Shown: positions 25,203 through 53,637, counted from the first letter of the stretch. The stretch is DNA of 64,000 bases from Terriglobia bacterium (GCA_965198225.1 CBDAOY010000009.1:1120001-1184000), one strand, 5' to 3'. Notes: generated from the letters alone by a model not told the origin. A program made the numbers and translations.

Positions 25203-27425
25203 ATGGTCGGATTATCTGTTGGATTCGTTTCTCAAAAGCGTGCGCTGTCTCTCCTGATTCTTTTCTGCGTTCTCGTCCCAGGAGCTGCTGCCGACGATTG
25301 GACGGAACTACGCGGCCCGAACCGCGACGGCGTTTCGGCAGAGAGTGGCCTGCCCGACAGCTGGTCTCTGGACGGCGACAACCTACTCTGGCGTGTCCCA
25401 TACGGAGGACTTTCCGGCCCGGTTGTCCTCGGCGATCGGGTCTACCTGCAGAACTCGGTCGGCGAGGGCGCCACGATTCAGGAGCGCGTCCTCTCCTTCG
25501 ACGCCGACAGCGGGGAACTGCTCTGGGAACAGCGCCTCAACATCACACACAGCGACGCGCCCTCACACCGGGCCGGCTGGGCGACGCCCGGGCTGGATGC
25601 GGAAACCGGCAACGTTTACATCATCACGGCCGACGCGACGCTCGCCGCTTACTCCCGGGAAGGCGATCCGGTTTGGCGGCGCCAGCTGACTGAAGAGTTC
25701 GGTTTCCTGACCACGCACGGCGGGCGGGTCACATCGCCGATGGTCGACGGCGATTTCGTGATCGTCGCGGGCATCACCTTCAACTGGGGCGAGTTTGCGG
25801 GCGGCGGCCAGCGGTTCATGACGTTCGACAAGCGGACCGGCGAAACCGTCTGGGTCAGCTCGCCGGGCCAGCGACCGTACGACACGACCTATTCGCCCCC
25901 GATGATTACCGAAATCGACGGAGTGCGCCTGATCGTGGCCGGGGGCAGCGATGGAGCCTGGTATGCGATCCGCGCGTCGACCGGCGAGCGTGTCTGGCGG
26001 TATGCCGTGTCCAAACGCGGCCTCAACACGGGTGCGATCCGCGTTGGCGACAACCTGATCCTCTCCCACAGCGAGGAAAACCTTGAGACCAGCACGATGG
26101 GTTTCCGGGCGTCTCTCGACCTCAGGAGCGCGGGTGAGGTCACCGACAGCGACACCAACTGGCTGCATCGGGGCTTTCTCGCCGGCTATGCCTCGCCGGT
26201 TACCGATGGCGAGCGGATCTACCAGGTCGACAACGGGGCGATGCTCGGAGCTTTCGATATCGACACAGGCGAAGAACTGTGGTCGCTGAAGCTCGGGACG
26301 ATCCAGAAAGCCGCCCTTGTGTATGCCGACGGCAAGCTCTACGTCGGGACGGCGAACAGCAAGTTCTACATCCTGCGGCCCGGTCCCGATGGATGCGAGA
26401 TCCTGAGCGAGGTCGAGGTCGGAAACCCGGACAACCCCGAACAGGTTACCGCCGGCGCGGCTGTTTCGAACGGCCGCGTGTATTTCTCGACCGCACAGGC
26501 CCTCTACGCGATCGGCAGCCCCGATAGTCAGGCGCCCACTTGGACGCCTCATGCACCGGCCAGGGCGACAACCACGGCGGGAGCGCCCGCGACGATGCTG
26601 GTCGTCCCTGGTGATGTCACGGTGTCGCCGGGCGAGAGCGTCGACTTCCATGTCCGTCTCTTCGATGCGAAGGGCAACTACGCCGGTGAGAGCGAAGCCG
26701 AATGGTCGCTCGATAGCCTGGGCGGTGCGATCTCTCCCGACGGTACCTACACGGCTCTGGACGAAGCACAGGGTTTTGCGGGCAAGGTCCGGGCCACCGC
26801 CGGCGGCATCAGCGGCGAGGCTCGCGTTCGGGTCATCCCGCCCCTGGACTGGGGTACCAATTTCGACGATTTTGACGTCGGAGGATTGCCGGCCTGGTGG
26901 CTGAACACGCGGCTCAAGTACTCCGTGACGGAGCTCGATGGCAATAAGGTGTTCACGAAGCGCGCCGACAACCCGTTCTCTTTCATCCGACGCGCCCGCA
27001 CGTACGGGGGGCAGCACACCGCGTCCAACTACACGACCGAGGCGGAATTGAGGTTTGCCATGAGGCGCCGAACCATGGGCGACGGCGGAATCGTCGCCCA
27101 GGGTTACCAGCTCGTGATCTTCGGAAACCACCAGCGCCTCGAGCTCCATTCGTGGCAGCCCGAGACCGAGCGCACGGTAACGGCTCCGATGAGGATCGAC
27201 GCCGATACCTGGTACCACATGAAACTGGAGGTCCAGACTCTGTCCGACGGATCGGTACGGGCTCGCGGCAAGGCGTGGCCAAACAGCGAGTCGGAGCCGG
27301 CGGACTGGACCCTGGAACGCATCGATCCGCCCGGCTTGGGTATTCTTACTGGGGCGCCGGGTCTCTACGGCGACGGCCGCAACGAAATCTACTTCGACAA
27401 TTTCAAGGTAACTCCCAGCCGATGA
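25203..27425 (+). CDS. exported PQQ-like beta-propeller with C-terminal Ig-like and lectin-like (ConA-type) domains
   Basis: Signal peptide then DWTELRGPNRDG; repeated 'D..TGE.lW' blades; tail ending GAPGLYG...IYFDNFKV. Confidence 0.8.
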   Translation: MVGLSVGFVSQKRALSLLILFCVLVPGAAADDWTELRGPNRDGVSAESGLPDSWSLDGDNLLWRVPYGGLSGPVVLGDRVYLQNSVGEGATIQERVLSFDADSGELLWEQRLNITHSDAPSHRAGWATPGLDAETGNVYIITADATLAAYSREGDPVWRRQLTEEFGFLTTHGGRVTSPMVDGDFVIVAGITFNWGEFAGGGQRFMTFDKRTGETVWVSSPGQRPYDTTYSPPMITEIDGVRLIVAGGSDGAWYAIRASTGERVWRYAVSKRGLNTGAIRVGDNLILSHSEENLETSTMGFRASLDLRSAGEVTDSDTNWLHRGFLAGYASPVTDGERIYQVDNGAMLGAFDIDTGEELWSLKLGTIQKAALVYADGKLYVGTANSKFYILRPGPDGCEILSEVEVGNPDNPEQVTAGAAVSNGRVYFSTAQALYAIGSPDSQAPTWTPHAPARATTTAGAPATMLVVPGDVTVSPGESVDFHVRLFDAKGNYAGESEAEWSLDSLGGAISPDGTYTALDEAQGFAGKVRATAGGISGEARVRVIPPLDWGTNFDDFDVGGLPAWWLNTRLKYSVTELDGNKVFTKRADNPFSFIRRARTYGGQHTASNYTTEAELRFAMRRRTMGDGGIVAQGYQLVIFGNHQRLELHSWQPETERTVTAPMRIDADTWYHMKLEVQTLSDGSVRARGKAWPNSESEPADWTLERIDPPGLGILTGAPGLYGDGRNEIYFDNFKVTPSR

Positions 27426-28882
27426 ACACAAACATGAACAAGAATCGAAAGCGAAGTCGGGTTGTTTCTTACGGACGCTTGTTGGTGCTGTGTCTGACCG
27501 CGCTGCTCCTGGTACAGGAGCGCGTGGCTCCGTCGTCCGAACCTTCGGACCCCGGGACCGGGGACTGGCCGATGTGGGGCGGCACCCCGGACCGCAACAT
27601 GGTTTCCGACATGGAGGGACTTCCCACCGAATGGGACGTCGATACGGGCGAAGGTGTCAAGTGGTCGGCCGAGCTCGGGTCGCAGACCTACGGCAACCCG
27701 GTCGTCGCCGAGGGCATGGTGTTCATCGGGACGAACAACGAGACTCCCCGCGATCCCGAAGTGACCGGCGACAAAGGCATCCTGTACGCTTTCCGGGAGT
27801 CGGACGGCGAGTTCCTTTGGCAGATCGCCTCCGACAAGATGCGGGAAGGCCGCGTCAACGACTGGCCCTACCAGGGTATCTGCTCCTCGCCGCTCATCGA
27901 AGACGGAGTGCTCTACTACACGACGAACCGCAGCGAAGTGGTCGCCGTCAACATCCGTGCGAAGGATGCCGATGGAAAACCCGTTCCCGAGATTCTCTGG
28001 GCGTTCGACATGATGGAGGAACTCGGAAACCATCCGCACAACATGACGAACGCGTCCCCGGTCGTCTACGGAGACCTGTTGTTCATCAATACTGCGAACG
28101 GTCAGGACGAAACCCACGTCAACATCCCGTCGCCCCGGGCGCCGGCGATCGTCGCCCTCAACAAGAAGACGGGCGAGCTCGTCTGGGAAGACGCTTCTCC
28201 GGGCGAGAACATCCTGCATGGACAGTGGTCGACTCCTACGATCGGCGAGATCGGCGGTGTGCTACAGGCGGTCAACGCGCAGGGAGATGGATGGATCCGC
28301 GGTTATGCGGCCGAGACCGGCGATAAGCTCTGGGAGTTCGACACCAACCCGAAAGACTCCGTGTGGCCCCGGACTCGTAACGAGTTGATCTCGACGCCCG
28401 TGATCCATGACGGACTCGTTTACATCGCCAACGGTCAGGACCCGGAACACGGCGAAGGCGTCGGTCACCTCTACGCCATCGATCCGACCAAGCGAGGGGA
28501 CATCACCGAGACCGGGATGGTGTGGCACTACACCGAGATCCGGCGCTCGATCTCGACGCCGTCGATCCGAGACGGCATTCTTTACATTCCCGATTTCAGC
28601 GGATTCGTCCACGCCCTGGACGCGAAGACCGGCGAGCAGATATGGAAGTACGACATGCTGGCCGCGATGTGGGGTTCGACGATGCTGGCCGGCGGAAAGA
28701 TCTATATGGGAGACGAGGACGGCGACCTGATCGTCATGGAAGAAGGCCGGGGGATGAACGTCATCTCGGAGATCAACATGGGCAGTTCGGTGTACTCGAC
28801 CGTCGTGCCAGCGAACGGGGTCCTCTACATCGCCACGCGCAACATGCTCTACGCCATCGACGGAGCGCATGAAGGCCCTTGA
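27422..28882 (+). CDS. exported PQQ-like beta-propeller protein
   Basis: ATGA coupling to the upstream gene; DWPMWGGTPDRN; repeated SxPvv.dG.vy / TGE..W blades. Confidence 0.85.
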   Translation: MNTNMNKNRKRSRVVSYGRLLVLCLTALLLVQERVAPSSEPSDPGTGDWPMWGGTPDRNMVSDMEGLPTEWDVDTGEGVKWSAELGSQTYGNPVVAEGMVFIGTNNETPRDPEVTGDKGILYAFRESDGEFLWQIASDKMREGRVNDWPYQGICSSPLIEDGVLYYTTNRSEVVAVNIRAKDADGKPVPEILWAFDMMEELGNHPHNMTNASPVVYGDLLFINTANGQDETHVNIPSPRAPAIVALNKKTGELVWEDASPGENILHGQWSTPTIGEIGGVLQAVNAQGDGWIRGYAAETGDKLWEFDTNPKDSVWPRTRNELISTPVIHDGLVYIANGQDPEHGEGVGHLYAIDPTKRGDITETGMVWHYTEIRRSISTPSIRDGILYIPDFSGFVHALDAKTGEQIWKYDMLAAMWGSTMLAGGKIYMGDEDGDLIVMEEGRGMNVISEINMGSSVYSTVVPANGVLYIATRNMLYAIDGAHEGP

Positions 28883-30011
28883 GATAGAGCTTCCGACGCG
28901 GGTGCTGTACGGCCCAGGTGCCCTCGATCAAATCGGCGCCCTCGCCCGCGACCTGGGTTTCAACCGCACACTGGTCGTATCCGATCCCGGTATCACCGAA
29001 GCCGGGTATTTTGACCGTGCCGTCCGCCTGCTCGAAGACGCCGGCATCCATGTCGTCGGCTACCACGATTTCAGCGACAACCCGGACTCCGATTCCATCG
29101 AAAAGGGTCGGGCCTTCGTCGAACCCCATGATGTCGATTCGATCGTGGGCCTCGGAGGCGGGAGCTCGATGGACTGCGCCAAAGGCGTCAACTTCCTGCT
29201 GACAAACGGCGGCCGGATGCAGGATTACCGGGGCTACGACAAAGCGTCGCAGCCGATGCTCCCGATGATCGGGGTACCGACAACGGCGGGAACGGGCAGC
29301 GAGGCGCAGAGCTACGCGCTTATTTCCGACGCTGAGACGCATGTGAAGATGGCCTGCGGAGATCCGAAAGCCGCGTTTCGAGTAGCCATCCTCGATCCGG
29401 AATTGACTCTGACCCAGCCGCGGGCCGTCCGGGCCGCAGCCGGGTATGACGCCATTTCACACGTCGTGGAGACACGGGTGACGACGAAGCGGACCGACAC
29501 GTCGGTGAGGTTCACGAGGAAGGCCGCCCCGCTATTGCTGGGGAGTTTCGAGAGTGTGATCGAGCATCCAGACAACATCCAGGCCAACGGAGATATGCTA
29601 CTGGGAGCGTTCTATGCCGGGGCGGCGATCGAACACTCGATGCTCGGCGCGACCCACGCCTGCGCGAACCCGCTCACGGCCCGCTACGGCACCGAGCACG
29701 GAGCTGCGATCGCCCACATGCTGCCGCACGTCGTGAGATGGAACGGGATGGTGTGCGGCGACGAGTACGCCGAGCTGGCGGCCGCCGCCGGTCTGGACTG
29801 CGACCGAGAGCAGGCACCGGAAATACTGGCGCAGCGCCTCGAAGGACTTGCCGTGGTCGGCGGTCTCGACACACGACTCCGGACGGTCGGGATCGAGCCC
29901 GAAGAGCTGCCGGACCTGGCCGCAGCCGCCGCCGAACAATGGACCGGGCAGTTCAACCCGCGTCCGTTCGACGAGATGGGAGCGCTGGAGATCTACGAAT
30001 GCGCGCACTGA
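28869..30011 (+). CDS. iron-containing alcohol dehydrogenase
   Basis: GLGGGSSMDCAK, PTTAGTGSE, DAISH, GATHACANP, EHGAAI. Confidence 0.92.
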   Translation: MKALEIELPTRVLYGPGALDQIGALARDLGFNRTLVVSDPGITEAGYFDRAVRLLEDAGIHVVGYHDFSDNPDSDSIEKGRAFVEPHDVDSIVGLGGGSSMDCAKGVNFLLTNGGRMQDYRGYDKASQPMLPMIGVPTTAGTGSEAQSYALISDAETHVKMACGDPKAAFRVAILDPELTLTQPRAVRAAAGYDAISHVVETRVTTKRTDTSVRFTRKAAPLLLGSFESVIEHPDNIQANGDMLLGAFYAGAAIEHSMLGATHACANPLTARYGTEHGAAIAHMLPHVVRWNGMVCGDEYAELAAAAGLDCDREQAPEILAQRLEGLAVVGGLDTRLRTVGIEPEELPDLAAAAAEQWTGQFNPRPFDEMGALEIYECAH

Positions 30012-31108
30012 CAACCCTCCTGATGGTGATGGCGCTGGCTGCTCCCGCGACGCCGCAGCAATCCGCCGCCTCGAGTGACGAGTGGCCCCAGTTTCGTGGT
30101 GGCGCGCAGCTGACGGGTGTCTCGGCCGTGGATTTGTCCGACCGCCTGAGCCTCGCCTGGACCTACGATGCCGGGGAGTCCATAGAGTCCTCGGCCGCCA
30201 TCGTGGGGGGGACGGTTTATGTTGGTTCCCAGTCTGGTGAACTGCATGCCGTGGACCTGGCGACGGGCAAGGCCCGCTGGACCTACGATGCGGGGGAACC
30301 GATCGGGGAGTCCTCACCGGCCGTCGCCGACGGCGCGGTATACATAGGGGACCTGTGGGGCACGGTTCATGCGGTGAGCATCGCCGACGGCAGCGTGCGA
30401 TGGAAGTTCGCGACGGAGAGCGAAATCAAATCATCCCCCGTCGTCGTGGACGGCAAGGTGTTGATCGGCTCCTACGATGGTTTTTTCTACGGGATCGATT
30501 CGGAAACCGGGAAGCTGGCGTGGTCGGTCGAAACCCAGGGGCCTGTACACGCCACGGCTGCGATTGCCGACGACGTTGCCTACATTTCGGGATGCGACGG
30601 CTATCTCCGCGGTATCGGCATCAGCGATGGTTCCGAGGTGTTCAGCATCGACGCAGGAGCCTACACCGGTGCTTCTCCGACACTCGTCGACGACCGGCTC
30701 TACTTCGGTACGTTCGACAACGAGGTGCTGGCGGTCGACCTGAGCGAGCGACGCGCGCTCTGGGTCTACGAACCGGAGCGCCGGTTTCCGTTCTACTCCT
30801 CGGCGGCAGTGGCCGGTGGCCGTGTCGTGGTCGGCGGACGCGACAAGCTCGTCCACGCGCTCGACACCGACACCGGAGAACAGGCCTGGTCGTTCGCGAC
30901 GCGTGCCCGTGTAGATTCCTCGCCAGCCATCGCGGGTGGCCGCGTGTATGTGGGATCGAACGACGGTCGCTTCTACGTGCTGGATCTGGCCACCGGCGAG
31001 AAGCTTTGGGAGTTCGAAGCCGGGGGCCCGATTTCAGCTTCCCCGGCGCTTGGCGACGGCTACGTCGTCATCGGATCGCAGGACGGCCTCCTGTTCGCCT
31101 TCCGATAA
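29999..31108 (+). CDS. exported PQQ-like (BamB-like) beta-propeller protein
   Basis: Signal peptide MRALTTLL..., EWPQFRG, regular SSPAV.dG.VYvGs.dG repeats. Confidence 0.88.
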   Translation: MRALTTLLMVMALAAPATPQQSAASSDEWPQFRGGAQLTGVSAVDLSDRLSLAWTYDAGESIESSAAIVGGTVYVGSQSGELHAVDLATGKARWTYDAGEPIGESSPAVADGAVYIGDLWGTVHAVSIADGSVRWKFATESEIKSSPVVVDGKVLIGSYDGFFYGIDSETGKLAWSVETQGPVHATAAIADDVAYISGCDGYLRGIGISDGSEVFSIDAGAYTGASPTLVDDRLYFGTFDNEVLAVDLSERRALWVYEPERRFPFYSSAAVAGGRVVVGGRDKLVHALDTDTGEQAWSFATRARVDSSPAIAGGRVYVGSNDGRFYVLDLATGEKLWEFEAGGPISASPALGDGYVVIGSQDGLLFAFR

Positions 31109-31263
31109 GGGTTGGGTGCCGGGCCCGGTTCTTGGGCCGAACCTTACCCAATGCCGAGTTCCGATTCGCTGAAAAGACCGCTGTTAGTCCGATTCGACTT
31201 CCTGCTTCTCCCGGACTTCCGCCCTCGGACTGACTCGGGCTTGTTAAGTTGACAGTACCCGGG

Positions 31264-32133
31264 TCACAGCAGCTGCGCCAGATCCCGCGGCAGAGGTGAT
31301 TCAAACCTTAGAAGTTCTCCAGACGATGGGTGCTCGAATTGCAAGGAGCTGGCGTGCAATCCCAGTCGCCGGGCGGGATTCGTGCGCGCGTCATATTTGT
31401 GATCGCCGACGATGGGACATTCCGCGTCGGCCAGATGCACCCGGATCTGGTTGCGCCGTCCCGTCTCTGGTGTCAGTTCGATCAACGCGCGGGTCGCGAG
31501 TCGCTTCATCACCCGGTAATGGGTTACAGCTTGGCGAGTTCGCTCGCCGGGAGGAGCGCTGTAGACCTTGAAGGGGCTGCTCTCATCCAGGTGTGACCTC
31601 AGAACGCCGTGGTCGGCTGGTGGATTTCCTTCCACCACTGCCAGGTAGTGTTTTTCTGCCTTGGACCAATGTGCCTGCAGCGCCTGCTTCGCCGCCTCCG
31701 TCTTCGCAAAAACCATCACCCCGGACGTTTCGCGGTCCAACCGGTGGACGATCCACACTCGTTCGGGGCTCTGAGGATTGCCGCGGCGCACGTAGCCAGT
31801 CAGAAAGGCGTAGGCTGTCTTGTCCCGTTCCGTCGCGCTGGCCATGCTCAGCAGATTCTCGGGCTTCTCGATGACAATTAGCGACGCATCCTCAAATAAT
31901 ACTTTCATTCCCCGTGGCAACAGACCTTCTCCGCGCACCTCGCCCTTGACGAGAATCGAAACCAAATCCCCGGTCTGCAGAGGGTGGTTGGAGCGCCTGA
32001 TCGACCGCCCGTTGACTTGAACCGATCCATGCTTGAGCCACTGCCGCACCTTAGTCCTCTTCACCTCAGGGCGACAGGCGAACAGAAAGGCCAGAAGTTC
32101 CGCAGGGTGTTCGACAGTGTGAGATGCGGGCAT
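31264..32133 (-). CDS. RluA family RNA pseudouridine synthase
   Basis: S4-like N-terminus, IEKPENLL, VHRLDRETSG, TGRRNQIRVH, PIVGD. Confidence 0.93.
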   Translation of the reverse strand: MPASHTVEHPAELLAFLFACRPEVKRTKVRQWLKHGSVQVNGRSIRRSNHPLQTGDLVSILVKGEVRGEGLLPRGMKVLFEDASLIVIEKPENLLSMASATERDKTAYAFLTGYVRRGNPQSPERVWIVHRLDRETSGVMVFAKTEAAKQALQAHWSKAEKHYLAVVEGNPPADHGVLRSHLDESSPFKVYSAPPGERTRQAVTHYRVMKRLATRALIELTPETGRRNQIRVHLADAECPIVGDHKYDARTNPARRLGLHASSLQFEHPSSGELLRFESPLPRDLAQLL

Positions 32134-32488
32134 GACGCTATGTTGCGGTGAGACAGGCTCCCGAAGCCATCAAGCAATCCGTCGAACGCGACGCAGACGA
32201 AAGGGCATTGTCAGGTCAACGCTACGCCGGGCGAAATGGCGGGACAAAAAGCTGCCGATCTCGCTACCTGCGACAATACACAACGATTCTTGCATATTCA
32301 CGAGTCATTCAGGATCTGTTTCGAATTGGTCGGCACCGGTTGAGGGCTGTTCATCACGGGAGGCCGCGAGCACGATCTCTCAGAGTGCGGGCCGCGGCGA
32401 CACCAGCCTGATTCCGGACCAGTCCGCTCTCATGCTGATTCGGGCTCGTTGACTGATCCTCAGGTGTCCGCGAGATCGGAAGACCAAG

Positions 32489-32908
32489 TCATCGTCCATG
32501 GACGAGCGTCTTCACTCCATCCTGGAAGACGACCTCGATCTTGTTGCCGCCCTTGACCGTGATCGTCACGCCGATCCCAAAGCTCGGGTGCTCCAGAACG
32601 TCACCCAACTCGTAACTGTCCTGGGAGGAATAGCGCTTGGCGAGGGACATGTCTTTCCCGTTCAGGAGTTCTTGATAACGGCTCACCCGCGCTTTTCGCG
32701 GTCGAGGTCCACTGGAGGCCGCTACTTTGCGCTGGCGCACTTTTTTGGGACCCTCACCTGGCTTGTGAGGCCTGTATTTGTGCTGCGCTCTGCAGGTATT
32801 GCAATGGACTCGCGCCGGACTGTCGCCGACCATGGCCTCGATCGTGTGCGCCAAGATGAGTTTGCAGGCACCACACCAACTGTCAACGTCATCGCCCGGC
32901 TTTAACAT
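32489..32908 (-). CDS. conserved hypothetical Zn-ribbon-like protein
   Basis: SD AGGAG then MLKPGDDVDSWCGAC...CNTC...H; C-terminal 'HPSFGIG...IEVVF...LVH'. Confidence 0.75.
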   Translation of the reverse strand: MLKPGDDVDSWCGACKLILAHTIEAMVGDSPARVHCNTCRAQHKYRPHKPGEGPKKVRQRKVAASSGPRPRKARVSRYQELLNGKDMSLAKRYSSQDSYELGDVLEHPSFGIGVTITVKGGNKIEVVFQDGVKTLVHGR

Positions 32909-33024
32909 TGTCTCTCCTGATAGTAGGTCACTTGATCTTCCGGATTCGAGGGGCCACGACATTATGCCCGACGGCCATCGGCACTCGATGGAACAGAACA
33001 CGGCTTCTACTTGTTTACAGCTGA

Positions 33025-33195
33025 AGCTGACATCAAGTTTGCGGCCGAGCCGCTCGGCCACCAGTTTCGGGTCAACCTCCAGACCGTTCATCAGCGAGGT
33101 GTGGAACCGTGCACTACCCGAAAACTGACGCATCCCAGATCCGCGTTCAAGGATGCGCGGCGCGAAAAGCGTCTGCCAGAGGTTATCGTTGCGCA
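33025..33195 (-). pseudogene. degraded C-terminal fragment of a tyrosine recombinase/integrase
   Basis: Joining across frames gives DNLWQTLFAPR...DLGCVSFRVV...HTSLM..LEVDPKLVAERLGRKLDV, resembling the integrase box II / LGH region. Confidence 0.5.
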
Positions 33196-37113: not shown

Positions 37114-37119
37114 CACCAA

Positions 37120-38901: not shown

Positions 38902-38919
38902 CGCCGCAACGGCGAGCCT

Positions 38920-42207: not shown

Positions 42208-43530
42208 ATGGTTGACGGGAAGCAGGAATCGGACACAGCGGACGTCGTAGTCATCGGGGGTGGTCCCGCCGGATCCACTGCGTCGACTCTGATCGCGCAG
42301 CAGGGACATCGGGTCGCACTGTTCGAGCGCGAGCGGTTCCCGCGGTTTCACATCGGGGAGTCGTTGATACCCGAGACCTACTGGGTGTTCGAACGTCTCA
42401 ATATGCTTTCGAAAATGAAGCGGAGTCATTTCGTCAAGAAGCGCAGCGTGCAGTTCTTCAGTGCGAGCGGCAAAGGGTCCAGGCCGTTCTATTTCGCAGA
42501 CAACAAGGATCACCCCAGCTCCCAGACATGGCAGGTCGAACGCAGCCAATTCGATCAGATGATGCTGGATAACGCCCGGGAACACGGCGTTGTTGCCCAC
42601 GAGGGCGTGCGCGTCCTGGACGTGTTGTTCGAGAGTGGTCGTGCGATCGGGGTCACGATCAAGGATGAGGACGGGTCCCTCCGTCAGGTCCGGGCCCGCG
42701 TGGTGGTCGACGCCAGCGGCGAAAACGGTCTCTTGATGAAACGCCTCGGGTTGCGCATCTGGGATCCGGTGCTCAATAAGGGAGCGATCTGGACGTACTA
42801 TGAAGGAGCACACCGCGACGAGGGCCCTAACGAAGGCGCTACCCTCGTCCTGCAGACGGCGAACAAGAACGGCTGGTTCTGGTACATTCCCCTGCACGGC
42901 AACAAGATCAGCGTGGGTGTCGTCGCACCGTTCGATTATCTCTTCAACCGGGATCGCGTCAGCCACGAGCAGACGTTTAACGAAGAAATGGAGCTGTGCC
43001 GCCCCGTCAAGGAGCGTCTATCGGTTGGCCACCGCGTCACCGGACATTACGCCACCAGAGATTTCTCGTATCGCTCGAAGCAGGTTGCGGGAGACGGCTG
43101 GGTGTTGGTGGGCGACGCCTTCGGTTTTCTCGATCCACTGTATTCATCCGGAATCCTGCTTGCGCTGAAGTCCGGGCAACTGGCTGCCGACGCAATCGTC
43201 GAGGGCTTTCGGAAGGGAGATACTTCCGGAGCACAACTGGGCAACTGGGGTCCGGCGTTCAACCGGGGTGTCGATCGGATGCGCCGCCTGGTCTGTGAAT
43301 ACTACGACGGCTTCAGCTTCGGCAACTTCGTCCGCAACTTCCCCGATCTACAAGGTGCGATCACCGACCTGCTGGTCGGCGACCTGTTCGACGACGATGT
43401 CGACCGGGTGTGGGAACCGATGGAATCCTTGTACGAGGCGGGCAAGGCCCGGATCCCGGAATGGGATGAAGGAGATCCGGCCGGACGGGCGAATCACACG
43501 GGCGAGTGGAAGGCGACGAGTGAGAGGTAA
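42208..43530 (+). CDS. flavin-dependent halogenase-like oxidoreductase
   Basis: GGGPAG, FPRFHIGESL, FVKK, VVDASG, GWFWYIP (WxWxIP), GDAFGFLDPLYSSG. Confidence 0.85.
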   Translation: MVDGKQESDTADVVVIGGGPAGSTASTLIAQQGHRVALFERERFPRFHIGESLIPETYWVFERLNMLSKMKRSHFVKKRSVQFFSASGKGSRPFYFADNKDHPSSQTWQVERSQFDQMMLDNAREHGVVAHEGVRVLDVLFESGRAIGVTIKDEDGSLRQVRARVVVDASGENGLLMKRLGLRIWDPVLNKGAIWTYYEGAHRDEGPNEGATLVLQTANKNGWFWYIPLHGNKISVGVVAPFDYLFNRDRVSHEQTFNEEMELCRPVKERLSVGHRVTGHYATRDFSYRSKQVAGDGWVLVGDAFGFLDPLYSSGILLALKSGQLAADAIVEGFRKGDTSGAQLGNWGPAFNRGVDRMRRLVCEYYDGFSFGNFVRNFPDLQGAITDLLVGDLFDDDVDRVWEPMESLYEAGKARIPEWDEGDPAGRANHTGEWKATSER

Positions 43531-43693
43531 GTGTAGGTGCGGTCTATGACCGCACGTCGTTTCGGCACGAAGAATGTGCGGTCATAGACCGCCCCTACAC
43601 CGGCCTGTGGAATCCTCGCTCGTGTGTAGGTGCGCTCTATGAGCGCACGGCGTTCCGGTTCGGAAGATGTGCGGTCATAGACCGCCCCTACAC
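43531..43693. repeat. two GTAG-type REP doublets between convergent genes
   Basis: GTGTAGGTGCGGTCTATGACCGCAC...GTGCGGTCATAGACCGCCCCTACAC at 43531-43600 and a variant at 43624-43693. Confidence 0.9.
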
Positions 43694-43700
43694 CAACGTC

Positions 43701-44945
43701 CTAAGGCCCACGCACGTCGTAGCTGTAGAGCACGGACTGGTCCCGCAGGTACAGCCGGCCGTCGCTCACCACAGGGTGCGCGTAGCTGGGCCAGCCTTGG
43801 TCCGGGATGCTGAACCGGCCTTTCTCGCTGTAGCCTTCCGGGGTAGCTTCGGCCAGCCCGACCACATTGCGTTCGCTGAAGATGTAGAGATTGCCGTCCG
43901 CGTATGTGAGAGAACCCTTGCCGACGCTGCGGTCCCGCCACATTACTTCCCCGGTTTCGAAGTCCATGCAGGTGAGGATGGAATTGTGAAATCCGTAGAG
44001 GTAGCCGTCGATGAGGATGACGCCGCCGTGGTGGTTCTGCATCTGCCGCGTGAAGTAGACTTCCTCGGCTTCCACTTCTCCGCCGCTGGCCGTTAACGCG
44101 AGCAAGCCGCCCCCTGTGCCGTAGGCTGAGGTGTAGAAGACCTTGTTTTCGTGAAAGATCGGCGTCGTGATGTTCGCCGTCCGGTTGGCCGGGCGCTGGT
44201 AGCGCCACATCAGCCTCCCGTCGGAAGCGCGAAGACCGACGCCCGCTCGCGCAGTCAGCGTCATCAGAACCCGAACGCCGCCGACATTGCCGGCGACAAT
44301 CGATGCGTAGCCGGCTGCGTCGCTCAGTTCGTCGCTCGTCCACACGACGTCCCCAGTCACCTTGTTGAGCGCGACGACACCGGCCCCACGGCCTCCAGGT
44401 GTCACGAAGACGTTGTTGCCTTCGACAAGAGGCGATTCGCTGACCAGCCAGGAGATATTGCGTCCGCCGAAGTCCTGGAGGATGTTTCGCTGCCAGATGA
44501 TGGAGCCGTCCGGGGCCCGGAGGCTCGCCAGGTCGCCGCTTTCGGTAAGCACGTAGAGCCGATTGCCGTCGACGGTGGGAGTTCCACGAGGGCCAGGCCC
44601 TTCGCCGTTTCTACGTCCACGCCCGATAGCCGTCGACCACACCAACCTGCCGTCGGCACGGTTCACGCCGGCTACTGCGCTCTGCTGTCCGACCGTCATC
44701 TGGACATAGATGCGGTCCCCCTGTACCGCAAGAGACCCATACCCCGACCCGAGGTTGGACACCATCCATTCCGGTTCCGGTCCCGAAGACGGCCACTCCT
44801 CGAGAAGTCCCGATTCCCTCGACAGCCCGTTTCGCTCCGGTCCTCGCCACTGCGGCCAGTCGTCCCCGGTGGCCAACGAAGCGTCCATTGCGACTAACGC
44901 GCATAGCGTAAACAGCAGGATGGCGAGAGAACGGCGTTTCAACAT
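43701..44945 (-). CDS. exported PQQ-like beta-propeller protein
   Basis: Signal peptide, DWPQWRGPERNG, 'G.vvW' blades, HPVVSDGRLYLRD. Confidence 0.88.
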   Translation of the reverse strand: MLKRRSLAILLFTLCALVAMDASLATGDDWPQWRGPERNGLSRESGLLEEWPSSGPEPEWMVSNLGSGYGSLAVQGDRIYVQMTVGQQSAVAGVNRADGRLVWSTAIGRGRRNGEGPGPRGTPTVDGNRLYVLTESGDLASLRAPDGSIIWQRNILQDFGGRNISWLVSESPLVEGNNVFVTPGGRGAGVVALNKVTGDVVWTSDELSDAAGYASIVAGNVGGVRVLMTLTARAGVGLRASDGRLMWRYQRPANRTANITTPIFHENKVFYTSAYGTGGGLLALTASGGEVEAEEVYFTRQMQNHHGGVILIDGYLYGFHNSILTCMDFETGEVMWRDRSVGKGSLTYADGNLYIFSERNVVGLAEATPEGYSEKGRFSIPDQGWPSYAHPVVSDGRLYLRDQSVLYSYDVRGP

Positions 44946-44973
44946 CGGGATGCTCCATGGATGAAATGCCCGG

Positions 44974-45501
44974 TCATGAACCTGTTCTCGAGATGAGCAG
45001 CGCTCCAAACCCGGGTGTGTATGCCAGCGTCCAGCCTGCGAAGTGGATCAGGTAATCCCAGCCGCTGGGATCGAAGGGAGACCAGATCCCATAGATCAGG
45101 TAGAAGGCCGCCCCTGAGGCCAGAGCGGCGGTCGCACCCCTCGCCAATGCAGTAGGAACGTCCAGGGGCCGGCGCATGAGGAGCTCGTTCAGTCCGCCGA
45201 GAGCGACCCAAACCCCCATCCACACGAGAACCATGACTGAGTAGCCGGCAACGGGGGCCAGCAGATAGAAGCTCGCTGCGGCGAGCCCTCCGATTACTGC
45301 GCCCGACAGTGCGCCGACTCCGGGCCGCTTGCTGAGCGCTCCCAGAAAGAGGCCGATCACGAGAAAGAGGATTGTTCCGTGAATGAGTCCGTAGACCGGC
45401 AGGTGCTGTGGGATCCAGGTCGCCCATATGAAGTCTCCGAGCGTGCTTACCGCGGCAATAGCGAGTGCGCCGCCGATCGATGCTCGAATGCCTGACATCA
45501 T
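44974..45501 (-). CDS. hypothetical polytopic membrane protein
   Basis: About six hydrophobic Gly/Ala-rich helices; coupled to the upstream propeller gene. Confidence 0.7.
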   Translation of the reverse strand: MMSGIRASIGGALAIAAVSTLGDFIWATWIPQHLPVYGLIHGTILFLVIGLFLGALSKRPGVGALSGAVIGGLAAASFYLLAPVAGYSVMVLVWMGVWVALGGLNELLMRRPLDVPTALARGATAALASGAAFYLIYGIWSPFDPSGWDYLIHFAGWTLAYTPGFGALLISRTGS

Positions 45502-46835
45502 TCCTCGGCGATGCTGTACAGGTACCGGTATCCGCGCAGGAGTATCTCGCTATCGACCAACGCCGGCGAGGCGTCGAAGCCGTCGTCCAGTGTGTTGGAC
45601 GCCAGGATCTCGTACTGGTTACCGTGACGGATCACGAGCGTGGTCCCGTCCCGGCCGGGCAGATACACTCGGCCGGCCGCACCCACGGGGGAAGAAAACA
45701 CGTTCGGTACCCCTTCCAGACGCTGCAATGCGAAGTGCGGTTCGCCGGTCTCGGCGTCGAATGCGGAGAGGATTCCCGAATTCGTCTTGAGAAAATAGAG
45801 GATGCCGTCGTAGAGCAGCGGAGACGGCACGTAAGGGGTGTCGCGTGTCAGTTCCCACGCGATCCGGTCCGTGCCCGTGATATCCCCGCTGGCCCCGGCG
45901 AGACGAATAGCCTTCAGGTTGTTGCCACGAAAACCGCTCATGGCGAACACCATGCCGTCGGCCCCCACCGGCGACGGGATCGGGTTCATCGTCAGGCCTT
46001 CGCTTTCCCAGACGATTTCGCCATCCTGGAGGTCGTAGCTCCGCAGCCGGTTCATACCGGGGACTATGACCTGTTCGCGACCGTCGTGCTCGACAACGAG
46101 GGGCGTCGCCCAGGTGTCGATCTCGTCTCTGTCAACGCGCCAGACTTCCTCGCCCGTGTTCTTGTCGAACACCACGACGAACGACTGCCCGCCCAGGTGG
46201 TCCCACACGATAACGATCCGGTCCTCGTAGAGTGCCGGCGTGCTACCCTCCCCGAACTGGTTCCGCATGCCCTTGTCGCCGAGGTCCTTTTTCCAGACGA
46301 GGTTCCCGTCCATGTCGTAGGCGTACAACCCGCGGGACTCGAAGTACGCGTAGACCCGTTGCCCATCGGTCGAAGCGGAATTCGACGCCCACGTTCCGTT
46401 GTCCTGATGCGTGGCCTCGTGTGGCGTATCTTCGGTCGCGGTCCGTTCCCAGACGACCTCGCCGTCGTTCCGGTCGATCGCCATGACCACGAAACGGTGC
46501 GTTTTCCGCGGTCGGAAACCGCCTAGCGGGGTGTGCGACTCCTCCACGGAGGTGTCCGTCGGAACGGCTGTCACCAGGAAGATCCGATCGCCCCAGACCA
46601 CCGGCGAGGCCGATCCACGTCCGGGTATCTCGATCTTCCAGCGAATGTTCTTCGTCTCGCTCCATTCCATCGGCGGGTTTGCGGTTTTCGACACGCCCGT
46701 CGCGTACGGGCCACGCCACTGCGCCCAGAACTTCTCGGCCTCCGGGTCCGTTTCGGCCAGGACCGACGCACCCAGGACGATTCCGATCGCGATGATCGTG
46801 AGACTCAGGGCCGCGATCCTCACTTTTCTCAACAC
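45498..46835 (-). CDS. exported PQQ-like beta-propeller protein
   Basis: Signal peptide, WAQWRGP, GSASPVVWGDRIF, YVPSPLLY, ASPAL. Confidence 0.88.
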   Translation of the reverse strand: MLRKVRIAALSLTIIAIGIVLGASVLAETDPEAEKFWAQWRGPYATGVSKTANPPMEWSETKNIRWKIEIPGRGSASPVVWGDRIFLVTAVPTDTSVEESHTPLGGFRPRKTHRFVVMAIDRNDGEVVWERTATEDTPHEATHQDNGTWASNSASTDGQRVYAYFESRGLYAYDMDGNLVWKKDLGDKGMRNQFGEGSTPALYEDRIVIVWDHLGGQSFVVVFDKNTGEEVWRVDRDEIDTWATPLVVEHDGREQVIVPGMNRLRSYDLQDGEIVWESEGLTMNPIPSPVGADGMVFAMSGFRGNNLKAIRLAGASGDITGTDRIAWELTRDTPYVPSPLLYDGILYFLKTNSGILSAFDAETGEPHFALQRLEGVPNVFSSPVGAAGRVYLPGRDGTTLVIRHGNQYEILASNTLDDGFDASPALVDSEILLRGYRYLYSIAEE

Positions 46836-46928
46836 TCACTTCCTACCGAACGTGATTGGTCCAGTAAGTATAGTCTCGTTCCCGAATCGGCGCTTGGAGA
46901 GAAAGCCGTTGACGTCGGGGTTCGGGCC

Positions 46929-49127
46929 CTAGCGATTTCGGCGGGCAGGGTCCGGTTCTTCTCCGAACCCGTACACGTGGCCCACCGTCCGGATAACAAT
47001 GAGACCGTCGGAAATCGCCGGCGGCGCCATGATGACCCCATCGATCTCGTTGTGCGCGATCTCGAAGTACTCGCGGCCGGCGCGCGCGACGAACACGTCA
47101 CCATCCTCGCTGGCGATGTAGAGCCGTCCGTCCGCCGCTACAGGTGAGGCGGAGAAGGCGCCACCGGTCCCGACGCGTGCGCGGTAGACCCGCTCACCCG
47201 TTTCCGCTTCATACGCCGTAATGATGCCGTTGCTGTTCAGCGTGTAGAACAGGCCTCGGTAGAGGATCGGTGTGGGGATGTATGTTCCCCCGCGATCCGA
47301 GCTCCACGCGATGGCATCGTTGGAGCTGGCGCGCCCGGTAAGGGAGATGTCGCCTGAAGATCCCGGCCGGATCGCGTAAATTGGGCGGACAGGGGGATAC
47401 CCTCCGGTCACGTACGCCAGGCTGGGACCCACGACCGGTGTCGCGACCGTGATCTCCGAGTTTGGAGCCAGCGACCAGCGCAGTCTGCCGGTCTCGGGAT
47501 CGTACCCCCGCACCTTGGTGCCGTTCGTGATCAGCTCATCACCGGATTCTCCCGTCGCGATGGTCGGGGTTCCCCACGTGGGGATTTCGTCATCCCGGCT
47601 CGTCCGCCAGAGTTCTTCCCCCTCCGACAGATCGTATGCCGCCACGAAGGAGTCCTTCTGGCGATCGACCTGGAGGATGACCGAATCCAGGTAGATGATC
47701 GGCGAGCTGCTGTGGCCCCATTGTTCGGTGGCGTCGAAGAACCAGCCGTTGTCGATCAGACCCAGGTCCTTCTTCCAGAGCAACGCACCGTCCATGTCGT
47801 AGGCGGCGAGCACTCCTGTCGTGCCGAAGAGCACGACCACGCGGCGTCCGTCGGTGACCGACGTGGAGCTGGCCTGGCTTCCCTTGGTGTGACGCTTCGT
47901 CCGGGGTATGCCCCGGTGGACTTCTCTTTCCCATCGAACTTCGCCGGTCTGATTGTCCAGTGCATACAGCTTCCATACGTGCTCGGATAGATCGTCGACC
48001 GAGCGGACGTCGCCGTAGAGACCGGTTCGAAACGTGTTGTCGCCGGAGCCGCTGATTGCGGTGGTGACGAACAGCCGGTCGCCCCAAACTACCGGGCTCG
48101 AATTGGCGACACCCGGGACGGGCGTTTTCCACCGGACGTTGTGTTGGGTTGTCACGTCCCATTCGACGACCGCACCCTGTCCATCGGCCACGCCTGAAGC
48201 CCCGGTTCCGCGGAAGGACGCCCACGGCCGGCCCGTCCCTCGCGGGGCGACCGCCAGGTCAGTCTCCGTCGGACTCGAGGTCGGCCCGCCGGTCGGTTCG
48301 GATGTTCCTGCCGACACTTCAGTGGTTCGGGTGTACACGAGCGTCGGATCCTCACCGGAGCGTGCCGGCCGCGTGAGGACCAGTTGGTCAACGTCATCCT
48401 GTTTGTCGAACGCCATACCGATGGCGGGTCTCTGCGGGGCGATGAAGTTCGATGACGAGATCGGAAAAAGTGTAACGATCTGTTCCAGGTTGACCCGGAG
48501 ACGGCCGTCCTCGTAGGTGATGACGATCGTTCCGCCGTTTTCCCGCCGGTAGGTACCGCTCAGCACCTCGAGGTCTGAGGGGGAAAGGGTCACGATCGAA
48601 TTCGCCGCGCCCGGCCTGTCCGACATCGCGGCCTCGAGGACCGATGCCATCTCCGTATTGCCGGAATCGACAACTAGCGCATAACTTGCGGCAACCGTGC
48701 TGTCGGCTACGTCGTCCCGCGCCGCGGCGGCCTCGAGCAGCGAAAGATCCTCTTGGGCGACCGCCAGCGCAAGAGCGTCGCTTGCTCCCGGCGACCCAGC
48801 TTCGATCAGATAGCGGACGATGTCCGTGTTTCCCTCCGCCATGCCGATGGCGGTGAAGCCGTAGAACGTATCTTCGACGGTCAAATCCGCATCCCGATCG
48901 ACGAGGAGTCGAACCATCTCCATGTTGGCGTTGGTTGCCGCGAACAGCAGTGCCGTGGCGTTGTAGCGCGTTTTGGCGTTGACGTTGGCTCCCCGCTCGA
49001 GCGCCCTCCGGACCTCCGGCAGGTCGTTCTGCTGGGCGGCATCGAGCAGGGCCTCGTCCGGGCTTGCCTGCACTCCGGCGAGCAGCAGCACGAGGGCCAG
49101 GGTCGGGAGCGACAGAGGTGCTGTCAT
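46929..49127 (-). CDS. exported ankyrin-repeat + DUF3471-like + PQQ-like beta-propeller protein
   Basis: SD AAGGAG and signal peptide; GANVNAKTRYNATALLFAA ankyrin repeats; 'LSPSDLEVLSGTY' domain; PWASFRG propeller. Confidence 0.82.
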   Translation of the reverse strand: MTAPLSLPTLALVLLLAGVQASPDEALLDAAQQNDLPEVRRALERGANVNAKTRYNATALLFAATNANMEMVRLLVDRDADLTVEDTFYGFTAIGMAEGNTDIVRYLIEAGSPGASDALALAVAQEDLSLLEAAAARDDVADSTVAASYALVVDSGNTEMASVLEAAMSDRPGAANSIVTLSPSDLEVLSGTYRRENGGTIVITYEDGRLRVNLEQIVTLFPISSSNFIAPQRPAIGMAFDKQDDVDQLVLTRPARSGEDPTLVYTRTTEVSAGTSEPTGGPTSSPTETDLAVAPRGTGRPWASFRGTGASGVADGQGAVVEWDVTTQHNVRWKTPVPGVANSSPVVWGDRLFVTTAISGSGDNTFRTGLYGDVRSVDDLSEHVWKLYALDNQTGEVRWEREVHRGIPRTKRHTKGSQASSTSVTDGRRVVVLFGTTGVLAAYDMDGALLWKKDLGLIDNGWFFDATEQWGHSSSPIIYLDSVILQVDRQKDSFVAAYDLSEGEELWRTSRDDEIPTWGTPTIATGESGDELITNGTKVRGYDPETGRLRWSLAPNSEITVATPVVGPSLAYVTGGYPPVRPIYAIRPGSSGDISLTGRASSNDAIAWSSDRGGTYIPTPILYRGLFYTLNSNGIITAYEAETGERVYRARVGTGGAFSASPVAADGRLYIASEDGDVFVARAGREYFEIAHNEIDGVIMAPPAISDGLIVIRTVGHVYGFGEEPDPARRNR

Positions 49128-49156
49128 TGGGGCTCCTTCACGAGGGAAGTCCGACT

Positions 49157-50485
49157 TTACCGTCCGATCGCGTAGACGGCATCGTCGGAACGGATGAACA
49201 ATCGGCCTCCGGCAATCGCCGGCGATGCCAGCTGCCGGGCATCGAGCTTGTTGCGCGCGAGGACTCGAGGGTCGCGGCCGGCTGCCAGGACGATGGTTTC
49301 TCCGCCTTCGCTGAGGAGGTAGATCTTGCCGTCGGCAGCCACCGGCGAGGCGCTGAAGACACCACCGATTCTCTGCTGCCACACGCGATCGCCGGTCTCT
49401 GCGTCGGTGACGGTGACGATCCCGACATCACCCACCATGTAGACCAGGCCGTCGTGATAGACGAGGGAGGAGACGTAGGGTGCGCCCGTTCCCACCCTCC
49501 AGAGGACATGACTGTTGGTGACGTCCCCGGCCCCACCCGGTCGGATCGCCATGAAGGGGCCGCTACGGTAGCCGCGACTCGTGTAGATCACTCCGTCGTT
49601 CTGGACCGGCATGGGGATCGGGAAACGATTCGACTCATCGAATTGCCAGAGAAGCTCGCCGGTGGCGAGATCATGGCCGGCCATCCCTACGCTCGAGTTC
49701 ACGATGATTTCGGCGGAATCCGTCGTCTCGATGACGAACGGCGTGCTGTAGGAGATGACACCCCTGGGTCGATCCACCTTCCAAGTGTTCCGTCCGGTAG
49801 CGGAATCCAGCCCAAGCAGGTAGCCTTGCGGTTCGTGGTAGCAGACCAGGATCACCGTACCGTCATGGACGATCGGCGAACTGCTGTGGCCCCAGTTGAT
49901 GCGGAAGGGTCCGTAATCTTCTGCCAGGTTGCGTTCCCAGACGAGTTTGCCGTCCATGTCGAGTGCGATGATCTGACCGGTGCCGAACCATGCGTAGACA
50001 CGTTCACCGTCGGTGACTGGACTCGGAGAGGCCAGGTTGTGCTTTTCGTGAACCGACGGCAGTCCTCCCTCCGGCTGGAGTGCGTATTCCCAGAGCCGGG
50101 CGCCGCTCGCGCGGTCCAGGGCGGTTACCAGGAACGACACGTCCCCCCCGCGGTCTCGCCTCGTTCCGCTCCCCAGCGGGGTCTCGCCTTCCGCTCCCGC
50201 ATCACCTGCCTGGAAGAGCCTGGGGCCGCGTCGGGAGTTGCCGGAGCCGGCCTGCGCTGTCACAAAGACATAGTTGCCCGAGACGATGGGCGACGAGATT
50301 CCGAGGCCGCGGATTTCCGTTTTCCAGGCCACGTTCTCGCTCTCGCTCCATTCCGTTGGCAATCCCGTCTCCGACGAGACCCCGGTTGCGGAAGGCCCGC
50401 GCCAGTGTGGCCAGTCGTCGGCTGAGAGGGTTGATGTGACTACGGCAATAGCCAAGAAGATCAGCAGGACTCTCGATCTATTCAT
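49157..50485 (-). CDS. exported PQQ-like beta-propeller protein
   Basis: Signal peptide, DWPHWRGP, GISSPIV, APYVSS, ASPAIAGGRLFIRS. Confidence 0.88.
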   Translation of the reverse strand: MNRSRVLLIFLAIAVVTSTLSADDWPHWRGPSATGVSSETGLPTEWSESENVAWKTEIRGLGISSPIVSGNYVFVTAQAGSGNSRRGPRLFQAGDAGAEGETPLGSGTRRDRGGDVSFLVTALDRASGARLWEYALQPEGGLPSVHEKHNLASPSPVTDGERVYAWFGTGQIIALDMDGKLVWERNLAEDYGPFRINWGHSSSPIVHDGTVILVCYHEPQGYLLGLDSATGRNTWKVDRPRGVISYSTPFVIETTDSAEIIVNSSVGMAGHDLATGELLWQFDESNRFPIPMPVQNDGVIYTSRGYRSGPFMAIRPGGAGDVTNSHVLWRVGTGAPYVSSLVYHDGLVYMVGDVGIVTVTDAETGDRVWQQRIGGVFSASPVAADGKIYLLSEGGETIVLAAGRDPRVLARNKLDARQLASPAIAGGRLFIRSDDAVYAIGR

Positions 50486-53631: not shown

Positions 53632-53637
53632 GCATCT

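Follow-up and report, generated by a model that had tools for sequence, protein, structure and literature searches.

The window analysed here, a 64,000-nucleotide stretch of DNA from a Terriglobia bacterium (GCA_965198225.1, CBDAOY010000009.1:1120001-1184000), carries on its plus strand two compact gene units that are, almost certainly, two halves of one system. The first unit encodes three exported beta-propellers of the pyrroloquinoline quinone (PQQ)-like type and an iron-type (group III) alcohol dehydrogenase (Fe-ADH), in the order B1 (25203-27425), B2, which is eight-bladed (27422-28882), Fe-ADH (28869-30011) and B3, a minimal propeller (29999-31108). The second encodes a HemN-like radical S-adenosylmethionine (SAM) enzyme (rSAM, 40426-41763), a hotdog thioesterase of the 4HBT/YbgC type (41760-42185) and a flavoenzyme of the flavin-dependent halogenase family (42208-43530). 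By comparison with relatives, we lean slightly towards regarding both units as fragments of a large aromatic-acid tailoring and export operon present in Acidobacteriota, Verrucomicrobiota and Planctomycetota. The original prediction, made from this DNA alone, had grouped these genes with four more propellers and a membrane protein (43701-50485) in one split cluster; its unity stands for B1, B2, B3, Fe-ADH, rSAM, thioesterase and flavoenzyme, and is not supported for propellers B4-B7.

All of these genes lie where they had first been placed, including both plus-strand units and the converging run. B1 and B2 overlap by 4 nt, and Fe-ADH indeed overlaps the propeller genes at both ends, by 14 nt (B2) and 13 nt (B3). 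The rSAM and thioesterase genes overlap by 4 nt, and 22 nt separate the latter from the flavoenzyme gene. From B3 to rSAM there are 9317 nt, which hold genes for RluA, SerC, a metallo-beta-lactamase-fold protein, an aminotransferase and an amidase (31109-40425) with a GC content of 0.592, lower than the 0.605-0.636 of the units on either side. Pfam and NCBIfam scans covered the 47 open reading frames (ORFs) of at least 100 amino acids in the window. The PQQ_2 cut-off was exceeded by all seven propellers, B3 being above those of PF13570 and PF13360, and the enzymes matched Fe-ADH, Radical_SAM, 4HBT and 4HBT_2 (both above cut-off) and Trp_halogenase. Among the NCBIfam matches listed, none of these eleven proteins reaches a family cut-off. 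As had been stated, polyketide synthase, non-ribosomal peptide synthetase and acyl carrier protein (ACP) families found no match among the 47 ORFs. Export was called with a hydropathy proxy (best 11-residue N-terminal mean) rather than a signal-peptide predictor; the maxima were 2.3-3.6 in the propellers, with a hydrophobic stretch in all seven, and 0.7-1.8 in the four enzymes.

Using an alignment of the rSAM family as a query, we found at least 568 relatives in the GTDB representative genomes and analysed the 80 top-scoring loci, taking up to 10 kb on either side of rSAM; 35 of them have full flanks and many others are clipped by contig ends. This set comprises 38 Vicinamibacteria-like loci (L027, L032 and L038 were placed there by sequence), 25 from Verrucomicrobiota, eight from other Acidobacteriota, seven from Planctomycetota and two of unclear origin. 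The record titles of L027, L032, L038, L074 and L076 (Bifidobacteriaceae, Acidimicrobiia, Akkermansia muciniphila, Saccharimonadales) clash with their sequence neighbours, possibly as mislabelled bins. The closest-scoring rSAM records come from Vicinamibacteria and other Acidobacteriota, with 63-73% identity, which makes an acidobacterial origin of the window probable. On plasmids, a tblastn search with rSAM hit 428 records, all below 60% identity (27-31% in the 15 listed), that is, distant relatives only. At least one gene of the first half (B1, B2, Fe-ADH or B3) was found within 10 kb of rSAM in 33 of the 80 loci: 17 of 25 in Verrucomicrobiota, 12 of 38 in the Vicinamibacteria-like set, two of eight in other Acidobacteriota, none of seven in Planctomycetota and both unclear ones. 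Gene by gene, the flavoenzyme is present in 60 loci, the thioesterase in 47, B3 in 30, Fe-ADH in 16, B2 in ten and B1 in eight, counts that are not independent events since gene order is common to related genomes. B3 stands immediately upstream of rSAM in 24 loci from two phyla, and wherever Fe-ADH is near rSAM, B3 is present too. All seven core genes form one run in two loci, L066 and L068. The 33 loci with first-half genes show 15 arrangements, part of which differ merely by contig clipping; true rearrangements, with first-half genes inverted or moved downstream, were seen in L013, L057, L061 and L063.

Phylogeny and gene fusions point the same way. In a FastTree phylogeny of 69 propellers (342 columns, fragments below 250 amino acids excluded), the B1, B2 and B3 of the window fall into three separate clades, each of which also holds cluster-located members of two phyla (support 0.998, 0.998 and 0.999, respectively); the B1 clade has seven cluster-located orthologues and the B3 clade 30. 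A B3-labelled match in L054 (25% identity) was dropped, being outside the B3 clade. Among 24 longer rSAM homologues, 13 are fusions of Fe-ADH to rSAM, one of them labelled as Planctomycetota, and their Fe-ADH parts are 49-55% identical to the Fe-ADH of the window. Two lone fusions, B3-rSAM (P0286) and B3/ADH/rSAM (P0290), were excluded as evidence, as a frameshift could yield them. The case for one system thus rests on the retention of the association across phyla at 55-60% rSAM identity, after rearrangement and in fusions. The linkage of Fe-ADH and B1-B3 to the rSAM, for which a neighbourhood analysis had been proposed, is kept, and the idea that the components would fail to cluster elsewhere, the propellers being scattered products of an expansion, failed for the seven core genes; B4-B7 do look mostly like expansion paralogues. 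Genes for RluA, SerC, the metallo-beta-lactamase-fold protein and the aminotransferase occur in none of the 80 loci, and the amidase in one, so the intervening genes (31109-40425) are, by these counts, not part of the system and split the operon.

A chance neighbourhood of unrelated operons would account for the 9.3-kb gap of housekeeping genes and for the mobile-element-like repeats that precede both units, but the direct adjacency of B3 and rSAM in two phyla and the 13 fusion proteins already contradict it for the seven core genes, and we give it hardly any weight. Some counts do pull away from a single system: 47 of the 80 loci have no first-half gene at all (many of them are contig-clipped), such a gene is present in just 14 of the 35 fully flanked loci and in no planctomycete locus, and distant members are under-sampled among the 80 best-scoring relatives.

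Regarding the propellers, orthology indicates that only three of the seven (B1, B2 and B3) are dedicated to the system. B1 bears a C-terminal extension that resembles a cluster of Ig and LamG domains at 0.91, which we take only as a lead; it is probably Ig-like plus lectin-like. In B3, a Gly-Cys-Asp motif is invariant (27/27). A further tight clade of propellers (L033:3641-4927, L035:1422-2714 and L069:2183-3484) adjoins the DMT-like, MFS or ABC genes of the cluster and, on its sequence, is a possible fourth dedicated propeller, without an orthologue in the window. PQQ alcohol dehydrogenases have vicinal cysteines as a hallmark, and the proposal that the propellers could be quinoproteins did not hold for the canonical PQQ type: none of the seven has a vicinal Cys-Cys or a CxxCH motif, and the best scores are far below the family cut-offs (110 bits against 480 for PQQ alcohol dehydrogenase TIGR03075; 80 against 650 for the acido-empty-quinoprotein group A, TIGR04528). 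BamB identity was rejected likewise: the best score against TIGR03300 was that of B3 (166 bits against 285), and when we looked for the N-terminal lipoprotein cysteine of BamB, the sole cysteine of B3 proved to be internal, and cysteine is absent from B5 and B6.

B2 was modelled as an eight-bladed propeller (pLDDT 89.8), with YxaL (Z 39.5) and BamB (Z 35.9) as nearest folds and PQQ dehydrogenases at 31.2. B2 thus shares its fold with the eight-bladed PQQ-like proteins (PQQ quinoproteins, BamB, YxaL and tetrathionate hydrolase), while the window propellers differ from these in being at most 25% identical when structurally aligned, in lacking Cys-Cys or a haem motif, and in their other conserved residues. 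The best 120 homologues of B2 are 63-91% identical. In an alignment of 80, dominated by close homologues, 31 polar loop residues are invariant and 30 of them sit on the d-a and b-c loops, that is, on one face, as assigned by strand order rather than coordinates; these loops hold 72% of all loop residues (binomial p about 5e-4). The invariant face includes four His, several Asp and Glu, and Arg, which suggests a catalytic or ligand-binding site and makes B2 a candidate periplasmic enzyme or binding protein.

This face also bears on one specific form of the aromatic-operon reading, in which the product would serve the expanded PQQ-like propellers as a cofactor or metal-binding prosthetic group, much as the pqq product serves quinoproteins, and B1-B3 would act in maturation or loading. 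We consider it unlikely, yet it has several points in its favour. The d-a/b-c loop face is, we assume, where PQQ binds in quinoproteins, and the operon of relatives contains export and uptake systems (ABC, DMT, SSS, MFS and TRAP), as expected for a shared cofactor. Besides, a handling of sulfur or metals is suggested by genes in L035, L055, L060, L080 and L026, namely GcvH-like (five loci), 4Fe-4S (three loci), CobW-like, cysteine desulfurase and rhodanese genes; L055 and L060 have both GcvH-like and 4Fe-4S genes, and L060 also CobW-like and cysteine desulfurase genes. The GcvH-like count excludes L067, whose match is a true gcvH downstream of a true gcvT, and L052, with low identity and a layout like that of L067; the cysteine desulfurase of L027 was taken as generic rather than cluster-specific. 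Furthermore, five of the seven propellers match the NCBIfam acido-empty-quinoprotein family weakly, among the matches listed. What speaks against the cofactor is that the nearest folds of B2, YxaL and BamB, are non-enzymatic and score above the PQQ dehydrogenases.

The four enzymes of the window look active, judging by their intact catalytic motifs. In the rSAM, CxxxCxxC is invariant and HemN_C is weakly matched; the only PDB matches are HemN (1OLT) and NocN (9P2U). Identity as HemN or CpdH was rejected, with 179 bits against a TIGR00538 cut-off of 325 and with the HemN substrate-binding segment, presumably near residue 308, unmatched in the 1OLT alignment. It also scores below the HutW cut-off, and HemW was rejected as well (158 bits against 205 for TIGR00539), the protein having Y-x-D-x-L-W in place of the HNxxYW motif that is the HemW hallmark (PMC10114718). 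A HemN-like domain with CxxxCxxC, as in class C radical SAM methylases, is present, and the sequence places the rSAM in a distinct HemN-like (class C-type) family, neither HemN nor HemW. According to PMC10114718, HemN-like enzymes generally use a SAM methylene radical and some methylate aromatic carbons, aromatic sp2 carbons being known substrates. With these enzymes (NosN/NocN, MenK/MqnK, TbtI, HemN and HemW) the rSAM shares HemN-like sequence, CxxxCxxC and a weak HemN_C match; it differs from them in its own conserved N- and C-terminal motifs, in its scores below the NCBIfam cut-offs and in a context without ribosomal peptide or quinone-pathway genes. A sister group with 40-44% identity (P0139, P0141, P0284 and P0285) is fused to an AMP-binding acyl-CoA ligase, which suggests adenylate or thioester substrates across the subfamily.

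The signature motifs of flavin-dependent halogenases are GxGxxG, a catalytic Lys, WxWxIP and FxDPxxSxG. In the flavoenzyme family, K78, at the position of the catalytic Lys, is present in 58 of 58 sequences and aligns with the Lys of 3E1T, and the other three motifs are conserved at 90% or more. The best structural matches were 3E1T (E 3e-60) and PltA 5DBJ (E 5e-57); QhpG and LodB, of the same superfamily, matched more weakly. Two flavoenzyme subfamilies alternate in the same gene context. The family is conserved unusually widely, which suggests that its product is physiological rather than confined to a niche. The carrier-dependent halogenases 3E1T, PltA and CmlS (3I3L) share the Lys position, WxWxIP and FxDPxxSxG with it; unlike in those systems, no ACP, peptidyl carrier protein or megasynthase lies nearby, and coenzyme A (CoA) is here the likely tether. 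Thioester-bound chemistry is likely. The thioesterase has a conserved D18, satisfies Pfam 4HBT and counts the 4-hydroxybenzoyl-CoA thioesterase 5WH9 among its top matches (E 4e-10); its sequence assigns it to the 4HBT/YbgC hotdog family. Group III alcohol dehydrogenases bind their metal through Asp-His-His-His, and D194, H198, H263 and H277 of Fe-ADH are invariant (27/27).

The relatives carry a longer form of the operon. In the 21-kb run of L066, of Verrucomicrobiota type, one strand holds, in order, B1, B2, a DUF3311 protein, a sodium symporter, an EhpF-like protein, an aldehyde dehydrogenase (ALDH)-like protein, Fe-ADH, B3, rSAM, a chorismate-lyase-like protein, the flavoenzyme, a GT4 glycosyltransferase, the thioesterase, a DMT-like protein, a PaaK-like ligase, a LolD-like ATPase and a double-FtsX permease. 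DMT-like is our own label for a small membrane protein without a family match. Among the 80 loci (scanned as representatives of clustered ORF families, with ORFs of at least 80 amino acids), the lyase-like gene was found in 37, the PaaK-like ligase in 32, the DMT-like gene in 17, GT4 in 15, the ALDH-like gene in eight and the EhpF-like gene in seven, with at least one aromatic-acid gene in 49. One record (P0123) fuses rSAM to the lyase-like protein, possibly through a frameshift. In L007, L008, L014, L023, L029 and L031, all Vicinamibacteria-like, a TAXI-type TRAP transporter lies 3' of the ligase and replaces the SSS or MFS transporter. The operon of the Terriglobia genome is broken up, in a dispersed or reduced form, as judged from the window, where none of 15 partner proteins used in tblastn has a homologue and the lyase-like, ligase, reductase, GT4 and transporter genes are all missing; this set left out the cyclase and polyprenyl synthase described below, families matched by none of the Pfam-scanned window ORFs.

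These partners, a chorismate-lyase-like protein, a PaaK-like ligase and an EhpF-type reductase, argue for an aromatic-acid rather than a fatty-acyl substrate, and one of the hydroxybenzoate type (4-hydroxybenzoate) appears reasonably probable from the sequences. The lyase-like model (pLDDT 93.9) folds like DUF98 2NWI (E 1e-7, the best match) and UbiC 1G81 (E 1.5e-4); its look-alike clusters in the Atlas include Chor_lyase and Rv2949c ones, in which these families have a share of just 11-19%. It keeps two Arg (37/37) and one Glu (36/37), whose positions we take to correspond to the UbiC active site, and it is a stand-alone protein without a helix-turn-helix domain. The EhpF homologue (E 8e-49) adjoins an ALDH-fold gene followed by Fe-ADH; GriC and GriD convert an aminohydroxybenzoate to the aldehyde, as described in PMC10179220. 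Four observations count against such a substrate or operon: the lyase-like fold is common to UTRA ligand-binding domains, none of 20 lyase-like members matches Pfam Chor_lyase or Rv2949c at E up to 1 (nor any other Pfam family), the best solved match of the PaaK-like ligase is an aliphatic 2-hydroxyisobutyryl-CoA synthetase, and the partners are absent from the window, as said.

The same partners could in principle serve salvage or catabolism, with propellers processing an external aromatic compound, transporters importing it, and alcohol dehydrogenase, ALDH and CoA ligase oxidising and activating it. The SSS, TRAP and MFS importers, Fe-ADH, the ALDH-fold protein and the PaaK-like ligase are typical of aromatic catabolism, and the best NCBIfam match of the MFS protein is an aromatic acid/H+ symporter, below cut-off. 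We find this improbable, as the chorismate-lyase-like protein, the glycosyltransferase, the HemN-like rSAM, the flavoenzyme with halogenase signature and the EhpF-type adenylating partner point to synthesis, and no recurring ring-cleavage or beta-oxidation family was seen among the relative loci scanned.

Downstream of the flavoenzyme gene lies, on the minus strand, the converging run of B7 (49157-50485), B6, an ankyrin-propeller fusion (46929-49127), B5 (45498-46835), the membrane protein (44974-45501) and B4 (43701-44945), neighbours being spaced by 29, 93, -4 and 28 nt in that order. It had been proposed that a fatty-acyl or lipid-modifying pathway involves these and hence all seven propellers, which we now judge very improbable. 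The thioesterase and the CoA ligase could take aliphatic acids, propellers of the B4 group occur near rSAM in seven of the 80 loci (three of these, the related L058, L068 and L073 of Verrucomicrobiota, have them within the operon), and homologues of the membrane protein (35-37% identity) adjoin the MFS gene of the cluster in two. However, no recurring ACP or ketosynthase family was found among the ORFs of at least 80 amino acids in the 80 loci, the B4-group matches are just 23-30% identical, and B4-B7 belong to none of the three cluster clades; for B5 and B7, close orthologues (70% and 65%, respectively) occur in a single locus, L026, among the nearest relatives. An expansion across whole genomes could explain the 16 non-core propellers counted in 1.3 Mb, which are spread over 11 loci, and the run (43701-50485) looks, from these comparisons, like mostly expansion paralogues. 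Identities among the seven propellers, B4-B7 included, are just 21-37%, too low for a recent tandem expansion. In L001, a propeller gene as long as B6 lies 5 kb 3' of rSAM, with 38% identity over the propeller.

Of the acyl or lipid substrate originally proposed, the fatty-acyl part is disfavoured by the partners, and a prenyl part is possible. Three of the 80 loci contain a cyclase similar to squalene-hopene cyclase (SHC), and two of these a fusion of polyprenyl synthase and DUF116. In L055 (4911-15740), genes run as rSAM-GcvH-ferredoxin-cyclase-synthase-lyase-MFS-GT4-thioesterase; in L060 (271-13255), cyclase and synthase, two genes apart, are divergent from rSAM-lyase-flavoenzyme; and in L008 (3-3651) the cyclase directly precedes Fe-ADH-B3. 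L055 and L060, whose cyclases keep an intact DxDD, are from Planctomycetota and L008 is from Acidobacteriota. The L055 cyclase has about 620 amino acids, an intact DxDD (DADD) and 120-149 bits against SHC cut-offs of 323-431. It agrees, by description, with an orphan SHC-like clade of 550-700 amino acids with DxDD kept, sub-SHC scores and a polyprenyl synthase nearby; published studies report this clade, of unknown substrate, from Planctomycetes, Verrucomicrobia and some Bacteroidetes (PMC7306690) and extend it to Acidobacteriota (PMC12324236). The product could then be an envelope lipid, namely a polycyclic terpenoid bearing aryl and sugar groups, built by the cyclase and the synthase-DUF116 protein, exported by the LolCDE-like system and carried by the propellers. 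Like the cofactor, this is a specific form of the aromatic-operon reading, and we rate it as rather unlikely: cyclase and synthase lie inside or beside the operon where present, but they are found in three and two loci only, neither is in the L066 run, and no UbiA-type prenyltransferase was seen among the recurring families scanned within 10 kb of rSAM, a scan that did not take in every ORF.

From the clustering, orthology, fusions, motifs and partner families described above, we infer the following substrate, order of steps and product for the aromatic-acid operon. The chorismate-lyase-like protein would supply 4-hydroxybenzoate and the PaaK-like ligase would turn it into an aryl-CoA. The flavoenzyme would halogenate (less likely hydroxylate) the tethered ring, the rSAM would add one carbon via a SAM methylene radical, and the thioesterase would free the acid. 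The EhpF/GriC- and GriD-type pair could reduce this acid to the aldehyde and Fe-ADH could take it on to the benzyl alcohol, before glycosylation by GT4. In some lineages the molecule may be joined to a cyclised polyprenyl chain. The DMT protein or the MacB/LolCDE-type ABC transporter would export it and, in the periplasm, it would be finished, carried or used by B1, B3 and B2, the last with a face that is probably catalytic or binds a ligand.

Every part of this gene set comes from a known superfamily. The cluster as such is apparently undescribed, and we found no paper on it or on a counterpart of the gene set in a search of mainly open-access literature. Bmp5, to which an enzyme of the closest system found has been likened, belongs to a different flavoenzyme family. 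That system is the baa locus of Planctomycetales strain 10988, for 3,5-dibromo-p-anisic acid (bioRxiv 10.1101/723874), where a chorismate-lyase-like gene lies directly beside a flavin halogenase gene, as in L060 and many other loci, and where 4-hydroxybenzoate is the proposed precursor of a methylated, halogenated product. BaaB is about 44% similar to Bmp5, and the part of the preprint text at hand names no rSAM, Fe-ADH, ligase or propeller (10.1101/723874); the likeness is drawn from the gene descriptions. The EhpF homologue of the relatives, beside its ALDH-fold gene, resembles grixazone GriC/GriD and EhpF (PDB 3HGU/3L2K), with the differences that no phenoxazinone or phenazine core genes were among the recurring families and that the pair occurs in 7-8 of the 80 loci and is absent from the window. 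Finally, the hydroxybenzoate meroterpenoid clusters of the MstE type combine aromatic-acid supply, a halogenase-family enzyme and a class II cyclase, as do L055, L060 and L008. MstE-type clusters contain a UbiA prenyltransferase, not seen in the families that we scanned; the relatives differ further in a two-domain cyclase with a synthase-DUF116 fusion, the cyclase being only sporadically adjacent, and in the additional rSAM, reductase and exported propellers. By sequence, the operon is best described as a putative variant of hydroxybenzoate-derived biosynthetic clusters of stand-alone enzymes.

The rest of the window contains repeats and several other genes. Elements resembling miniature inverted-repeat transposable elements were found at 7422-7694, 24855-25039 and 40093-40257, with 14-nt terminal inverted repeats in common (six matches against 0.08 expected); the longest resembles a composite of the two shorter types, and one element lies just upstream of each operon half. 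They are most simply read as insertions between genes. A palindromic repeat resembling the repetitive extragenic type stands 3' of genes at 43531-43694, 50639-50694, 53781-53836 and 57591-57646, and is doubled between the converging flavoenzyme and B4. Rfam and tRNA scans of the window gave no matches, and a promoter scan gave two sites against 4.7 expected, with no usable operon boundary. On the minus strand, 408-5167 encodes a YfiR-like protein, a CHASE8 hybrid kinase and a REC-PAS-GGDEF-EAL protein, possibly truncated, whose EAL match spans just 154 of 236 model positions; 9993-12929 encodes a 978-amino-acid protein with a weak patatin match; 13225-15578 holds two overlapping ORFs in different frames, both with RCC1-like repeats, which probably reflects a frameshift in a single gene or an error of assembly; 16272-24335 is an arginine operon with an N-acetylornithine carbamoyltransferase (above cut-off) and a 351-amino-acid ORF without an assigned family (19675-20730); and 51400-56178 encodes a tandem pair of closely similar DUF5916/CBM9-like exported proteins. 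A GH19 and SH3 protein is encoded on the plus strand (8375-9421).

With at least 568 relatives of its rSAM, the operon is widespread across three abundant, little-cultured phyla, and as its stand-alone enzymes are annotated as HemN, BamB or alcohol dehydrogenase, it is probably hidden from cluster predictors. Our results give testable substrates to a large, mis-annotated HemN-like family and to a conserved halogenase family, pick three pathway propellers out of a large anonymous expansion, and tentatively tie the system to what SHC-like cyclases make. Gemmata obscuriglobus is among the cultured, tractable planctomycetes (PMC12324236) and mutants of Planctopirus limnophila have been made (PMC7306690). 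We also raise, as a tentative possibility, that the product of the operon is a new aromatic cofactor or envelope molecule, probably carrying halogen and possibly anchored by a terpene, and that after export it is loaded onto PQQ-like propellers for which no cofactor is known. If true, this would offer one explanation for the propeller expansions in Acidobacteriota and bacteria of the Planctomycetes-Verrucomicrobia-Chlamydiae group, would fill in the substrate so far lacking for the orphan SHC-like cyclases, and would mean that biological halogenation is widespread among abundant bacteria of soils and waters.

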